A stretch of 64,000 nucleotides of DNA, taken from UHGV virus genome UHGV-0211740, one strand, 5' to 3'. The position numbers and the translations under genes are program-made. Below, piece after piece: positions 9,380 through 55,126 of the stretch; within the stretch, counting starts at the first letter, position 1, and every line of letters begins with the position of its first letter. Under the pieces are notes generated by a model. It was not told the DNA's origin. It was given only the letters and a program-made list of their open reading frames with translations, and did not search any database. This DNA is from a virus.

Positions 9380-9664
9380 CTATTTTTCTGAATTTGGCAA
9401 GTATTGCACATTGGCAGGAGGAACACCGGATAGCTCCCAAACAACCAGAGTGCTGTACCCTGGCACACTTCTAACATTTAAAAGAGTAGGGGCACCAACA
9501 CATTTAAACTTCCTTTTCCCAAATCCGTTCTCCATCATAACCCAGTATCCGGTATCCTGATCACCGGGAATTTGTGTTCCATCATTGTCCACCCAGCGGA
9601 CGGTCCATTTCGACACAGCAACAGCTCTATACTTAAACTTTTTAAACCACTCAAAGAGTTTCAT
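9380..9664 (-). CDS. hypothetical protein
   Basis: 94-aa ORF. Confidence 0.4.
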   Translation of the reverse strand: MKLFEWFKKFKYRAVAVSKWTVRWVDNDGTQIPGDQDTGYWVMMENGFGKRKFKCVGAPTLLNVRSVPGYSTLVVWELSGVPPANVQYLPNSEK

Positions 9665-38712: not shown

Positions 38713-39669
38713 TCATTGCATATAGTCCTCGTTGTGGAAATAGTAGTCAAGTATCTCACGACGTTCCTGCTCAAGGAGGCAGTTCCACACATCCTCTGTG
38801 TAGTTGTTACGAATGAAGTTTACCATGCCATAAAACTCTTCGTCAATACGTTTAAAGATATCCTCATCCCAAATCTTCCAAGCTCTCCCTCTCATTACGG
38901 CCTTCCGTGCCAGGTAGTATGGAGATTTGATCTTCAACTGCAGGTCATAAGGGTAGTAAGGATTACGGATCATGTACCCTTCGCCCCTTGTTTCTGCAGC
39001 TAATTCTTTTGCATAGCTGAACGGAATTTCACGCACAGTGTGAGGACGTTTTGCACCAAGATACTTGGCAATACCGTCTAAAGCCGCTTCTGGTAGCATT
39101 ATTCCAGAATCATTGTATCTACAACCTATCAAATACGCACCATGATCCTCATGAACAATATGCGGGTCTGAAGGGTGACAAATTTCAAACATAAATGTCA
39201 TGTTTTCATGGCCCATAACCTTCTTGATAAGATCTAAATTGCCACATTGCTCCTGAATGGTTTCCTTTGCAAGGTTACAATATGGAGAATCAAGAGACCC
39301 AGTCGTTGAGAATAATAGTTCACCTTTATGAGAGGATACCACGCCAAGGAACCCGTTCTTTTTCTCTACAGCCGTCACAAGCTTATTGTCAGGTAGGTTG
39401 GTTGAGTTTTCTCCCAAGTTAAACACTTTTGTGAAGGGCCATGCCACAACATTCCCCTCGTTACCGACAACAATGCCTCGGCACTCCAGTAGACGCGGAG
39501 AAAAATGCCATAAATTGTTGTAGAATACTTTTCTGGCATATTTGTAGATCTTTAATCCGAGATCTGGATAATACCGACTGGTTACAAGACCTTTATCCAC
39601 TAAATCATCTGCATTAAAATACTTCATCATGCGTTCCTCATTTGTCATTTTGTTCCACAATCTTCCCAC
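38713..39669 (-). CDS. RNA ligase, Rnl1 (T4 RnlA) family
   Basis: LLECRGIVV, KVFNLGEN, motif I VEKKNGF, motif IV EGYMIR and motif V LKIKS line up with T4 Rnl1. Confidence 0.75.
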   Translation of the reverse strand: MGRLWNKMTNEERMMKYFNADDLVDKGLVTSRYYPDLGLKIYKYARKVFYNNLWHFSPRLLECRGIVVGNEGNVVAWPFTKVFNLGENSTNLPDNKLVTAVEKKNGFLGVVSSHKGELLFSTTGSLDSPYCNLAKETIQEQCGNLDLIKKVMGHENMTFMFEICHPSDPHIVHEDHGAYLIGCRYNDSGIMLPEAALDGIAKYLGAKRPHTVREIPFSYAKELAAETRGEGYMIRNPYYPYDLQLKIKSPYYLARKAVMRGRAWKIWDEDIFKRIDEEFYGMVNFIRNNYTEDVWNCLLEQERREILDYYFHNEDYMQ

Positions 39670-39748
39670 ACAAACAGTATCATGTCAACACTTGAAATGC
39701 TCAAAAGAACACGGTATACTGTCGTTAAAATTAAAACGGAGGGTCGCT

Positions 39749-40159
39749 ATGTCTAAAATGCTATATATCGTGCGTGGTCTACCAGGGTCTGGCAAATCAA
39801 CACTGGCAAATGCGTTATCTTTAGAAGGTCTGTATCCACATTTTGAGAACGACATGTTCTGGTACGACGATGATGGAAATTACAACTGGGATGCAAGTAA
39901 AGTGACACTTGCTGCAAAATGGTGCAAAGATAATATAGAAGATATGATGCGTATGGGGTACGACCGTGTCGTGGTAAGCAACACATTCACAAAAGAAAAG
40001 CATGTGCAAGAGTATATTGACATGGCGATCCGTAATGGGTATAATTACACAGTAATCGTGGTGGAGAATCGCCACGGTAACAAAAGTATCCACAATGTTC
40101 CAGAAAAGGTTGTGGATCGTATGGAACGTGAACTGAAAAACTGTATTAAACTTAAATGA
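39749..40159 (+). CDS. P-loop kinase, putative polynucleotide 5-prime kinase
   Basis: Start refined to the ATG after a GGAGGG RBS; Walker A VRGLPGSGKST like the T4 Pnk kinase domain. Confidence 0.55.
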   Translation: MSKMLYIVRGLPGSGKSTLANALSLEGLYPHFENDMFWYDDDGNYNWDASKVTLAAKWCKDNIEDMMRMGYDRVVVSNTFTKEKHVQEYIDMAIRNGYNYTVIVVENRHGNKSIHNVPEKVVDRMERELKNCIKLK

Positions 40160-40166
40160 GGATAGT

Positions 40167-40721
40167 ATGAAATATTTTATAACAAGTGACACACACTTTC
40201 TCCACCAGCGTGTTATGGAGTTCGATTCTTGTCAAAAGCACAGATCGCAGTATAACCACGATCTTGATAGCATGAATGCAGGGATCATAGACAAGTGGAA
40301 CTCAATTGTGTCACCATGGGACACTGTGTTCCACTTGGGAGACATTGCATGCACTAAGGATAAGAATATCAACAACTTACTGCCTGAAATTCTAAATATG
40401 CTGAACGGACATATTATTCTTGTTCGTGGTAACCATGACACAAGGACGACTGTCAGAATTATGAAAGAGTTCTGTCATGAGGTTGTAGATTATTACGAGC
40501 TTCGCCACAACAAGAATCTGATCTGTATGAGCCATTACCAGTTTGCAACGTGGAACAGAAAGCCCCACGGATCAGTTCAACTGTTTGGTCATGCTCACGG
40601 AACCACACAACAGTTATTTGGCAGGCAGTTGGATGTTGGTTGGGATGTATGGGGTAGACTGTTACCACTAGAAGAGGCATACAGCCTTGCAATGAGTTTT
40701 GATATTGACAGCAGGGAGTAA
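40167..40721 (+). CDS. calcineurin-like metallophosphoesterase
   Basis: Motifs SDTHF, LGDIA, RGNHD and GHAHG of the binuclear metallophosphoesterase fold. Confidence 0.7.
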   Translation: MKYFITSDTHFLHQRVMEFDSCQKHRSQYNHDLDSMNAGIIDKWNSIVSPWDTVFHLGDIACTKDKNINNLLPEILNMLNGHIILVRGNHDTRTTVRIMKEFCHEVVDYYELRHNKNLICMSHYQFATWNRKPHGSVQLFGHAHGTTQQLFGRQLDVGWDVWGRLLPLEEAYSLAMSFDIDSRE

Positions 40722-40768
40722 TCCCTGCTATATTAAAGAAAATAGCCACACAAGGAGAATCAGGAGAT

Positions 40769-41119
40769 ATGAAAGATGAGGATAAGCTGCCCTATCTTAA
40801 AGTCCCACTTGGGATACTTTCTCTGTCGAAAGTTTTGAATACTACAACTGGAGAGGTGGTTATTCTTGATCTGTATGACAAGGTAGTATACTGCTACCTG
40901 CACAACTGGTATAAGCTTGGAGGAAATTCACGATTCACACCGAGCACAAGGAAAATTGCAGCTGATACAGGGATTAAGAAAACAAAAGCAGCAGAATGCG
41001 TTAGAACTTTAGAGTGTGCGGGGATAGTTGAAACTTCCACACAAGGGAGAGGGAAAAGATGCACATTTTCTAAAGTTTTACCACCAGAAGAAGTGATTCG
41101 CATGTCAACAACTGGTTAG
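40769..41119 (+). CDS. hypothetical protein, possible winged-helix DNA-binding protein
   Basis: 116 aa; STRKIAADTGIKKTKAAECVRTLECAGIV resembles a wHTH; lies just upstream of the palindrome array. Confidence 0.35.
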   Translation: MKDEDKLPYLKVPLGILSLSKVLNTTTGEVVILDLYDKVVYCYLHNWYKLGGNSRFTPSTRKIAADTGIKKTKAAECVRTLECAGIVETSTQGRGKRCTFSKVLPPEEVIRMSTTG

Positions 41120-41195
41120 ACCAGTAAAAACTTAAATATTTGTATTATAAAGGTATGTATGTTTTATGTCCACACCAGCACAAAGATTACAAACT

Positions 41196-41274
41196 GTCCG
41201 TGAGACGGACACTACTGTCCGCCACGCGGACACATCTGCCCGTAATACGGACACTAACTGTCCGTGATACGGAC
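41196..41274. promoter_or_regulatory. array of four 15-bp palindromic operator-like sites
   Basis: GTCCGTGAGACGGAC, GTCCGCCACGCGGAC, GCCCGTAATACGGAC and GTCCGTGATACGGAC at 41196, 41217, 41238 and 41260; 21-22 bp periodicity. Confidence 0.55.
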
Positions 41275-41779
41275 ACATAAAGAATATAACTAAAATAACT
41301 AAAGAATAAAAATAAAAAGATCTAGTACTTATTGTACTAAAGTGCATATACTTAACTTATGTAGAATATACTAGATCTAAAGTACTATGTTTTAAATTTA
41401 TTACTTACTGGTATAGTGTCGGCCCTTCATTGGCACTCGCCTATGAGGGGCGAGATGCCGGGCCTCCATAGTGCACACAATAACAGGCGTGCATACGTGC
41501 ATGGCTGTTCACATGTGTGGGAGCGAAGCTATAGCGCAGGCCAAAGGCCGAGCACTAATGTGGACCGCCGACGAAAGCTTGCCAGCGCAGTAAGGAGTCG
41601 GTTGGGAGTCTCCCGCGCGAGTTTGTTTAAAGTTTATGTGTGGAAACTGGCAAGAAGGCCTCTAAATCGCTCTACAGCTGTGTGAACTACACTGGGTAAG
41701 GCAATCACACCAGTTTGATAGAAAAGCTCGTTACAAAGCGATACAGTGAGTTTTTCTATAACCTGAAGAGGAGTCAGCT

Positions 41780-42358
41780 ATGAGCTCACGCAAACATGAC
41801 CGAGAAAAGATTGCAAAACGTTATCAGGATGAAGAACAGATGGAGAAAACTTTCAAGTGGAGGCCAGGTTTCCAGCGCAATCATTCGGACGCTCGTGATC
41901 GTAAGCATCCAGATAAGTGGTTAACACCGCCAAACGATGACATGCAAGTCGGTGATGAGAAGGAGTTGTCACCGGGGAAAGATGGCAACTACATTCGCAC
42001 TAAGGAAGCTGGTCCAAAGGATGACAGCTATCTTGTAGATAAGGTTCTTGCTAGTATTGATGTAGATGTTGATACTGTACGAGACACTTTCCTTGGTTGG
42101 TATCGCACAGGGTTTTTCGACATCAAGGCTATTCGTCGTGTTTGCGATATTAAAAAGTCTGCCTACGATGACGACTCTCTACATCGCACTCTAAGACAAT
42201 ATTCAGAGAGATACGGTCATCCAGTTATCACTCTTGACGATATTAACGAAGTGATGTATCATGTAGAGGTTGTTGCAGGTAGGTTCGGTGATGCATATCT
42301 CGGTATTCTTTCTGCAAAGGATGAGGTAATGTTAAATAAAATTTACTATGAACGCTGA
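41780..42358 (+). CDS. hypothetical protein
   Basis: 192-aa ORF, first long plus-strand ORF after the control region. Confidence 0.5.
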   Translation: MSSRKHDREKIAKRYQDEEQMEKTFKWRPGFQRNHSDARDRKHPDKWLTPPNDDMQVGDEKELSPGKDGNYIRTKEAGPKDDSYLVDKVLASIDVDVDTVRDTFLGWYRTGFFDIKAIRRVCDIKKSAYDDDSLHRTLRQYSERYGHPVITLDDINEVMYHVEVVAGRFGDAYLGILSAKDEVMLNKIYYER

Positions 42359-43221: not shown

Positions 43222-43563
43222 ATGGCGGATACAACTAAAAAGCGTCGCCGTAGAGGCAGACCTCTGAAAGAGGAGTCCAACGCCATTCAGCTAGAGAAGA
43301 ACATTCTTGATATGAAGGAATCTTTTATAGCGATGGTTCCAGAAGCTCATAAAGTTCTAAGAGAGCTGATGTTGGATCCGAAAACCAAACAAAATATTCG
43401 TCAAAGCATTGCAGAGTATGTCCTTGACAAGGCAGACAGAATGCAGGAAGAATATGATGAGATGTTTGGTGAAGAGGAAGAAGAGGTGGTAGTAGAAGAG
43501 GCTGAAAAACCAGCACCTTTTATGCCGTTTACCACCGAAATACAGCCTGTTAGTAACAGTTAA
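43222..43563 (+). CDS. small DNA-binding protein with AT-hook-like motif
   Basis: Start refined to MADTTKK after a GGAGG RBS; KRRRRGRPLK AT-hook-like segment and acidic C-terminus. Confidence 0.45.
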   Translation: MADTTKKRRRRGRPLKEESNAIQLEKNILDMKESFIAMVPEAHKVLRELMLDPKTKQNIRQSIAEYVLDKADRMQEEYDEMFGEEEEEVVVEEAEKPAPFMPFTTEIQPVSNS

Positions 43564-54700: not shown

Positions 54701-55126
54701 GTGGCAGCAGGTTATAGGCTGATAGGAAAGAACAGGCTAATACCTCGTAAAACATTCAAAGGTCGCCACAGAGTGTATAACAAAACAATTGGTGGGCCTT
54801 TTGTCAACGAGGGGTTAGAACTTGAATATGAAGAGTTTGATGTCTTAGAGTGTGTTGTGCAGCCGTTGACAGGAAGGGCAGCTAAAGATTACTCCTCTCA
54901 AATAAACCCTGAGGGTGACAGACAGTATGAGGCTTTTACAGTTTACTCATCAACCAAGTTGTATAGTCCGGATGAAGGAACGTATGCAATGGCTGATCAA
55001 ATTCAACTGCCTGACATACGTGGTGACTTGAAATGGTTTACCGTTTTAAAGTGTGATGCATATGTCACGTCTGGTGGGGGAAGATATAGATTTTTTGTGG
55101 TAGAAGAGCCTGAAGGAGAAAACTAA
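54701..55126 (+). CDS. putative neck or tail completion protein
   Basis: 141-aa ORF. Confidence 0.4.
   Translation: MAAGYRLIGKNRLIPRKTFKGRHRVYNKTIGGPFVNEGLELEYEEFDVLECVVQPLTGRAAKDYSSQINPEGDRQYEAFTVYSSTKLYSPDEGTYAMADQIQLPDIRGDLKWFTVLKCDAYVTSGGGRYRFFVVEEPEGEN

Follow-up and report, generated by a model that had tools for sequence, protein, structure and literature searches.

A palindrome array beside a small winged-helix protein gene as a candidate replication origin of Vequintavirus phages

The locus and its surroundings

We analyzed a 64,000-nucleotide stretch of a virus genome (UHGV-0211740), which we will call the window. It contains an array of four palindromes, downstream of a gene for a 116-amino-acid winged-helix protein and just before an AT-rich tract (Table 1). 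The region from 40700 to 41800 matches 119 phage records at 80–98% identity (blastn against phage records), and every matching record that we examined is from the genus Vequintavirus (rV5-like myoviruses with genomes of about 136 kb). The nearest relative is OX460980.1, a complete genome of 136,399 bp, which is 97.9% identical over this region. Among phage records, both the intergenic DNA (blastn, 119 records) and the 116-amino-acid protein (tblastn) were found in Vequintavirus only. Nearly all of the matching records are Escherichia phages, except for 18 GenBank records that are titled "Campylobacter phage" (such as MG065674.1 and MG065690.1; several are marked UNVERIFIED). These are about 90% identical to the E. 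coli Vequintaviruses at this locus and, judging by that similarity, look like mislabelled or contaminating coliphage genomes.

Gene order around the locus is fixed in the annotated relatives. Minus-strand genes for DNA ligase, Sir2, and RNA ligase are followed by a strand switch. The plus strand then encodes a P-loop kinase-like protein, a phosphoesterase, and the 116-amino-acid protein; after a 660-bp non-coding gap come small genes, tRNAs, lysis genes, and the terminase. An earlier note on this DNA had placed the array at the boundary between divergent gene blocks. This was incorrect: the strand switch, along with the change in skew, is at about 39,650, and the array lies within the plus-strand block, 1.5 kb downstream.

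We also noticed that the strand switch is flanked by genes for an AAA_33 kinase-like protein and a calcineurin-type phosphoesterase (39629–40721) and for RNA ligase 1 (38713–39669). This set is near a tRNA cluster (43.6–44.5 kb) and resembles a T4-style tRNA repair kit (polynucleotide kinase/phosphatase and ligase).

Table 1. Features of the locus, and the share of variable columns for each segment in an alignment of 12 phages.
Feature	Coordinates in the window	Strand	Basis	Variable columns
Sigma-70-like promoter, predicted; upstream of the 116-aa gene	40705..40734	+	TTGACA-18-TATATT with TG extension, 11/12 consensus matches	
116-aa winged-helix protein, candidate iteron-binding origin protein; RepA_N/DnaD-N-terminal-domain-like fold, without a C-terminal recruitment domain	40769..41119	+	Profile and fold searches	
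24 bp directly before the array				67%
Array of four 19-bp palindromes, candidate iterons	41193..41275	strandless	Sequence read, repeat finder, pattern search	8%
AT tract, 88% A+T, candidate DNA-unwinding element	41276..41317	strandless	A+T and stacking-stability ranking	7%
AT-rich inverted repeat, 61 bp; perfect 10-bp ends AGATCTAGTA / TACTAGATCT, which supply two AGATCT (GATC) sites	41318..41378	strandless	Sequence read, repeat finder	6.6%
Second AT-rich stretch, which completes a 140-bp low-stability region	41379..41415	strandless	Stability ranking	32%
Conserved non-coding segment, 60% GC, possibly structured RNA or DNA; origin membership uncertain	41416..41620	strandless	Broken ORF, fold z-scores	12%
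Leader of the next gene				20%
Flanking coding ends				15–24%

The four near-identical palindromes that the earlier note had described (starting at 41196, 41217, 41238, and 41260, with a 21–22 bp periodicity) were all recovered by reading the sequence, with a repeat finder, and by pattern search. The 15-bp cores are GTCCGTGAGACGGAC (41196–41210), GTCCGCCACGCGGAC (41217–41231), GCCCGTAATACGGAC (41238–41252, with one mismatch), and GTCCGTGATACGGAC (41260–41274). From start to start, the cores are 21, 21, and 22 bp apart, and their flanks are of the ACT/ACA type. The symmetric element is longer than the 15-mer: when we pooled 49 units from 13 genomes, we obtained a 19-bp element, cTGTCCG-N5-CGGACAc, whose dyad centre is an invariant A. 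The note was also right about the neighbors. The winged-helix gene, which it put about 80 bp upstream, ends 74–77 bp before the array (at 41119), and the AT-rich inverted repeat and the GC-rich segment do lie downstream.

If up to one mismatch is allowed, then GTCCG-N5-CGGAC has five matches in the window, versus 0.52 expected by chance, and none of 100 shuffles reached five matches of the 15-mer. Four of the five matches are the array, and the fifth is a solitary site at 9587 with one mismatch. Across all 136,399 bp of OX460980.1, the array's four units are the only sites with up to one mismatch. The motif is not common genome-wide, which was a concern raised in the earlier note. Scans of IMG/VR with the extended palindrome gave unrelated single matches only. 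None of 5,426 E. coli genomes contains a copy of the array region, and we thus have no indication of a satellite that borrows these iterons. A few phage records annotate the repeats as "repeat_region".

A 33-codon micro-ORF overlaps the array (41166–41267; also at 547–648 of both L006 and L007) and is annotated in the phages MaxTheCat and typing phage 5. We rejected it as a gene: no other DNA of the region varies as much as its N-terminal third, and the remainder is the repeat read in frame; the "hypothetical protein" is probably a spurious gene call. Also, two independent assemblies break here. MG065672.1 begins at the first unit (its position 2 corresponds to about 41192), and the Logan contig L139 stops about 10 bp past the last unit (at about 41285). 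These breaks are probably an effect of the repeats or of the AT tract on assembly.

The DNA that adjoins the array is 80% A+T from 41276 to 41415. Within the window, the tract at 41277–41416 ranks first both for A+T content and for lowest nearest-neighbour stability, whether measured over 40, 60, 100, or 140 bp, and the orthologous tract likewise ranks first for A+T and for instability in the entire 136.4-kb genome of OX460980.1. On the minus strand, the 88% A+T tract (41276–41317) ends in GATCTTTTTATTT (41322–41310). The AGATCT sequence at the ends of the inverted repeat is over-represented throughout these genomes, with 52 sites in the window and 85 in OX460980.1, or 2–2.7 times the expectation from base composition (AAGATCT is about 3-fold enriched). 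We considered and rejected AGATCT as a promoter motif: the enrichment is genome-wide, and the sites are mostly intragenic and lack a shared flanking context, so it is probably a codon or dinucleotide effect and not a signal.

Beyond the second AT-rich stretch, GC content rises to 60%, as compared to 42–43% for the genome. Fold z-scores for this GC-rich segment are −2.5 (plus strand) and −3.1 (minus strand). In three phages, an 18-nt indel shortens the tip of a predicted hairpin, while its base (CACACA/UGUGUG) is kept. The consensus fold varies too little for covariation to be informative (1 of 65 pairs is compensatory), and a search of the intergenic region against Rfam found no family; in the window, tRNAs are found only elsewhere. 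We do not regard an open reading frame of 89 codons (41416–41685) as coding, since 10 of 12 relatives have a stop codon within it. A structured RNA is one possible identity of the GC-rich segment, and a primer or leader element is another.

Constraint on the repeats

The share of variable columns falls from 67% just before the array to 6.6–8% in the array, the AT tract, and the inverted repeat (Table 1). Across 13 phages, hardly any change is seen in the half-sites, the AT tract, or the inverted repeat. Changes within the units are confined to the central spacer, the outer flanks, and one mirror-symmetric pair (T/C at position 2 and A/G at position 14). This is the pattern that would be expected, from sequence, if a symmetric dimer reads two half-sites that are one helical turn apart.

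Three of the phages have three units instead of four. Each of them has lost one exact period (21, 22, and 21 bp), at different registers, which left hybrid units in two of the three phages and kept the phasing in all three. As estimated from the lengths of blastn matches, about one-fifth of the records have three units, and none have fewer. The low variability and the clean losses of units imply that constraint acts on the repeats and their phasing as well as on the AT tract and the inverted repeat, and that three units suffice.

We also considered that the palindromes might act as hairpins in RNA or DNA (a REP-like 3' stabiliser, or an array of terminators after the 116-amino-acid gene), or that they are a coincidental simple repeat, with no protein involved. 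Each unit can form a stem of 5–7 bp with a loop of 5 nt, a stop codon lies directly before the array, and there is one weak terminator-like call on the minus strand. The concentration of variation in the "loop" is predicted by hairpins as well. However, hairpins do not require that the stem sequence and the flanks be common to all units. Furthermore, unit 3 carries a stem-breaking GCCCG in every phage, as does unit 1 of L139, and no runs of T follow the stems on the plus strand. Hairpins also do not explain why the two-turn phasing was kept after the deletions of units, or why an initiator-like gene and the AT tract are linked to the repeats. We consider this explanation to be very improbable.

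Another possibility is that the array serves for packaging, as a pac site, or is centromere-like, with a small terminase subunit or a partition protein as its binder. Vequintaviruses use headful packaging and their genomes are circularly permuted, so a pac site may exist; we did not find one described for Vequintavirus in the papers that we consulted. Phased repeats are typical of pac and centromere-like sites, and the two assemblies that break at this locus could be taken as a hint of packaging, although assemblies commonly break at repeats or in AT-rich DNA as an artefact. But the terminase ORFs begin at about 45.3 kb, about 4.1 kb downstream of the array, and do not adjoin it as expected for a pac site; in the more distantly related phage BIS47 (see below), about 14 kb separate the homologous module from the terminase gene. 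A centromere was one of three options in the earlier note, and we see no support for it, because these are lytic, headful-packaging phages with no partition ATPase nearby: by Pfam and PHROGs, the only P-loop protein near the array is the AAA_33 kinase-like protein. And the adjacent protein has an initiator-type fold, not that of a small terminase subunit or a partition protein. A packaging or centromere-like role seems improbable.

The winged-helix protein and its relatives

The 116-amino-acid protein matches PHROG 12838 ("replication initiation protein") with E = 3.5e-72. Its Pfam matches are both near threshold: 26.8 bits for DUF6945 (cut-off 28) and 25.1 bits for HTH_36 (cut-off 25), which is the DNA-binding module of the hybrid initiator from plasmid pPR9. 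There is also a faint profile match to an "O-like" PHROG (E = 0.004). Among proteins in the PDB, the best match by sequence is 4RO3 (E = 3.9e-5, or E = 1.4e-5 with a profile of 14 family members), which is about 100-fold better than the matches to MarR/SlyA or CodY. 4RO3 is the N-terminal domain of RepA from PLE, a phage satellite of Vibrio cholerae (PMC7145576). In the databases, the protein is labelled as a "putative transcriptional regulator" in many records and as a "replication initiation protein" in several.

The predicted structure points the same way. An AlphaFold2 model (pLDDT 79.7, pTM 0.76) was built from a shallow alignment, because two large protein searches yielded just 15 family members. 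When we compared the model to known structures with Foldseek, 4ro3 was the first match, and RepA_N entries occupied ranks 3–6, including the N-terminal domains 4pql and 4pt7 and the Rep-DNA complex 5kbj. Matches among viral structures include proteins named as replication initiators and ORF88 of phage ICP1, which is the nuclease Odn; the N-terminus of Odn mimics RepA.

The earlier note had suggested the adjacent small protein as a binder of the array. The RepA_N/DnaD-type fold of the model and the similarity to 4RO3 favor this suggestion and would make the protein a plausible iteron-binding protein. The note's second candidate, the protein encoded at 43222–43563, has no DNA-binding signature in Pfam or PHROGs, and we set it aside. 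Another protein, of 192 amino acids, is encoded downstream and had no match in the PDB, in Pfam, or in the sister genera.

For the 116-amino-acid protein, scans of IMG/VR proteins found no relatives. A search of plasmids gave a single match (88.8% identity), at 102,789–103,136 of CP057073.1, a non-mobilizable 137,565-bp E. coli "plasmid" from cattle faeces. By its sequence, CP057073.1 is evidently a complete Vequintavirus genome that was assembled along with its host.

A shorter homologue, of 105 amino acids, is present in Mydovirus (Klebsiella phage BIS47), in Seunavirus (Cronobacter phage EspYZU08), and in one metagenomic relative. It belongs to the same Pfam family and is 24–28% identical to the 116-amino-acid protein across the alignment. 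Beside it are two different 20-bp semi-palindromic repeats (AGCCTATGCTCAAATTGAGCA-like) with a period of 23 bp. The order of elements in the sister genera is the same as in the window: repeats, then an AT tract of about 75–95 bp, and then palindromes that contain AGATCT. (The GC-rich segment is missing from the sister genera.) So, between genera, the sequence of the repeats changes along with the protein, while the AT/AGATCT core is constant.

In the 147-kb genome of BIS47 (NC_048656.1), the module's AT tract ranks first for A+T and instability at every scale, the global minimum of cumulative GC skew (at 54,874) lies inside this tract, and the repeat motif is found nowhere else in the genome. 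In Vequintavirus the gene is oriented toward the repeats, whereas the Mydovirus gene faces the other way. That the module was kept despite the opposite orientation of the gene indicates that the linkage of protein and repeats survived rearrangement.

The main alternative to an origin is that the array is purely a transcriptional operator: the 116-amino-acid protein would be a repressor or roadblock that binds cooperatively and controls read-through or initiation into the downstream block (the GC-rich RNA, small genes, tRNAs, lysis genes, and terminase), with no role in replication. Besides the "putative transcriptional regulator" labels and the weaker similarity to MarR/SlyA and CodY, seven of the homologues match the Pfam family "wHTH-PRTase associated", and Pfam places those of Mydovirus and Seunavirus in it. 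Furthermore, in BIS47, the repeats lie between a predicted leftward promoter and the start codon of the homologue, in the leader of its own operon, which would suit autoregulation. (The Seunavirus repeats are also in the leader of the homologue's operon, and the predicted promoter of BIS47 also transcribes through both the AT tract and the repeats.) Iteron-binding Rep proteins commonly autoregulate too, so the protein may act both as a regulator and at an origin.

Several observations do not fit with an operator alone. The closest relatives by sequence and fold are the DNA-binding domains of initiators, and they score about two orders of magnitude better than MarR-type proteins. In Vequintavirus, the array is downstream of the protein's gene instead of at its promoter (40705–40734). 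A scan limited to sigma-70 consensus promoters found none on the plus strand that overlaps or follows the array. (One sigma-70-like site on the minus strand, at 41172–41144, lies just upstream of the array; its −35 hexamer is in the variable 24 bp.) The lack of a second site in OX460980.1 also argues against a pure operator. MarR/SlyA repressors are winged-helix dimers that bind palindromes with half-sites one helical turn apart, as proposed here, and the phage protein has weak similarity to them in sequence and fold, but their operators normally have one or two sites and overlap promoters, whereas this locus has four phased sites, no such promoter, and an adjoining tract of the unwinding type. 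Finally, an operator does not explain why the repeats adjoin the least stable DNA of the genome in two genera whose loci cannot be aligned. We think it unlikely that the array is only an operator.

A proposed origin of replication

Of the three options in the earlier note (an operator, a centromere, or an origin-binding site), the origin is favored by the initiator-like protein and by the least stable DNA next to the array. Iteron-type origins are recognized by at least three direct repeats of about 17–22 bp in helical phase, by an adjacent AT-rich element of the unwinding type, and by linkage to an initiator-like gene. The locus has four such units (three or four in the relatives). The AT-rich element is evident from the sequence of the window, of OX460980.1, and of BIS47, and the linkage to the gene is kept in the sister genera. 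Iterons that adjoin the weakest duplex of the genome are the classical layout of an initiator-dependent origin, which supports this interpretation.

We propose that the array is the iteron block of an iteron-type replication origin in Vequintavirus. Dimers of the 116-amino-acid protein would bind the four 19-bp palindromes, with each subunit reading one cTGTCCG half-site and the two half-sites one helical turn apart. Because the sites recur every two helical turns, the bound dimers would lie on one face of the DNA. The phased dimers would bend or wrap the DNA, and the stress would be relieved by opening the adjoining AT tract of 42–140 bp. The phage's T7-like replisome (a primase-helicase and a family-A polymerase) would then load at the opened tract. 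Transcription from the predicted promoter upstream of the protein's gene, which would cross both the array and the AT tract, might assist with opening or loading. Against the proposal, T7-type replisomes can initiate at promoters without an initiator protein.

We have moderate confidence in this proposal because the protein lacks a recruitment domain, its Pfam matches are near threshold, the evidence from GC skew is confounded, the layout in Mydovirus resembles autoregulation, and sites for host factors are lacking. With regard to the last point, there are no DnaA boxes (TTATNCACA, up to one mismatch) and no exact IHF consensus in 41100–41800; such sites are found in many iteron-type origins, but not in all of them. 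With regard to skew, the global minimum of GC skew in OX460980.1 is 1.5 kb away from the array, and the rV5 genome paper reported that GC skew in these phages follows the direction of transcription, so the minimum is weak evidence. The authors of that paper sought the origin by skew analysis and did not find it.

The closest known system is PLE, whose RepA is the nearest relative of the phage protein both by sequence and by fold. PLE RepA is a RepA_N-type initiator that is required for the replication of PLE; through its N-terminal domain it binds a short run of semi-palindromic direct repeats, which lie in an origin that is non-coding, the iterons vary in concert with the DNA-binding domain as one module, and replication depends on the replisome of phage ICP1 (PMC7145576, PMC8263062). 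An ICP1 isolate has one of the closest homologues of the rV5 polymerase, according to the rV5 genome paper. There are also differences: PLE has three iterons of about 30 bp, instead of four 19-bp palindromes at 21–22 bp intervals, and PLE is a satellite, while here the module lies within the lytic phage itself. And PLE RepA has a conserved C-terminal domain that is hypothesized to recruit the replisome, whereas the phage protein corresponds to the N-terminal domain alone.

The RepA_N plasmids offer a second comparison. In RepA of pSK41 and pTZ2162 (PDB 4PQL, 4PT7, 5KBJ), an N-terminal winged helix of about 120 residues oligomerises, binds four "Rep boxes", and bends the DNA by about 30 degrees, and the C-terminal domain of pSK41 RepA is essential for replication and binds the primase DnaG (PMC5703833). 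The phage protein shares the N-terminal winged helix with a RepA_N/DnaD-type fold, according to the predicted model, and the 19-bp dyad-symmetric units resemble the semi-palindromic iterons of RepA_N origins. However, we do not consider it to be a full member of the RepA_N family because it has no match to the RepA_N profile of Pfam (PF06970), at E values of up to 1, and because it ends at the winged helix, without a C-terminal domain that could recruit a replisome or primase. (We did not find a partner protein that supplies such a domain.) Also, RepA_N plasmids have Firmicutes as hosts and their origin lies inside the rep gene, while the phage array is outside of the gene.

In the origin of phage lambda, dimers formed by the N-terminal domain of O bind four phased, dyad-symmetric iterons; next come about 40 bp of AT-rich DNA and, after these, a palindrome. 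The elements of our locus are in the same order. But lambda's origin is inside the O gene, and the C-terminal domain of O, which recruits P and DnaB, has no counterpart in the 116-amino-acid protein.

We also compared the locus to oriC of E. coli, which has 13-mers (GATCTnTTnTTTT) and AGATCT boxes. The minus-strand GATCTTTTTATTT matches the oriC 13-mer GATCTATTTATTT, whose sequence we verified in E. coli genomes, at 12 of 13 bases, which is not statistically significant. Motifs of the GATCTTTT type, as in oriC, recur in the loci of the sister genera, where AGATCT keeps its relative position. Unlike oriC, the phage locus has no DnaA boxes, and AGATCT is over-represented genome-wide. We view the similarity to oriC, which is a matter of sequence and is not significant, only as a lead.

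The rV5-like phages are among the most commonly isolated coliphages; the BASEL collection includes some of them, and they find use in biocontrol. In the literature, we found no competing assignment of an origin for Vequintavirus, and no paper that links Vequintavirus with iterons, with a replication origin, or with DUF6945. We conclude that the origin site of rV5-like phages had not been identified before, although the "replication initiation" label for the protein was already in the databases. With a candidate of about 230 bp and a named binder, the location of the origin can be put directly to the test, and the site would be useful for engineering phages and for building plasmids whose replication is confined to infection. 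If our proposal is correct, then the RepA_N/DnaD-type origin-binding fold, known so far from plasmids of Firmicutes and from one Vibrio satellite, extends to large lytic myoviruses of enterobacteria, here without the recruitment domain. How such a form would load the replisome is then a question in itself. The less usual features of this proposal are an initiator with a single domain and the possibility that BIS47 has two modules.

More speculatively, the Vequintavirinae might use a stand-alone RepA_N-type DNA-binding domain, of about 105–116 amino acids and with no recruitment domain, as an initiator that opens the weakest duplex by phased wrapping of two to four palindromic iterons. Pairs of initiators and iterons would be exchangeable cassettes on a shared core (the AT tract and (A)AGATCTTTT motifs), and some phages, such as BIS47, would have two orthogonal cassettes and hence two origins. 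The core, with its AGATCT and 13-mer-like motifs, might be read by a common factor from the phage or the host. This broader scheme is tentative, and we would not be surprised to see it fail.

BIS47 encodes a second small winged-helix "replication initiation protein", BIS47_214 (92 amino acids), which has no homologue in Vequintavirus. Right behind its gene, a pair of TGCAAAATTTGCA palindromes spaced by about 23 bp precedes the second most AT-rich tract of the genome and three AAGATCT motifs. From its sequence, this locus (NC_048656.1, 117,200–117,701) is a possible second origin cassette.

We also looked at the equivalent divergent intergenic region of the phAPEC8-like phage ESCO37 (Phapecoctavirus; positions 390–600 of L013, from OM386659.1). 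We saw no RepA_N-like gene beside the repeats of ESCO37. The region has long AT tracts, GATCTATAGATC and AGATCT palindromes, and AGTACNG-type repeats (AGTACGGAGTACAGTACTTGAGTACAGAGTACTAC), and it may be an analogous origin with different repeats.
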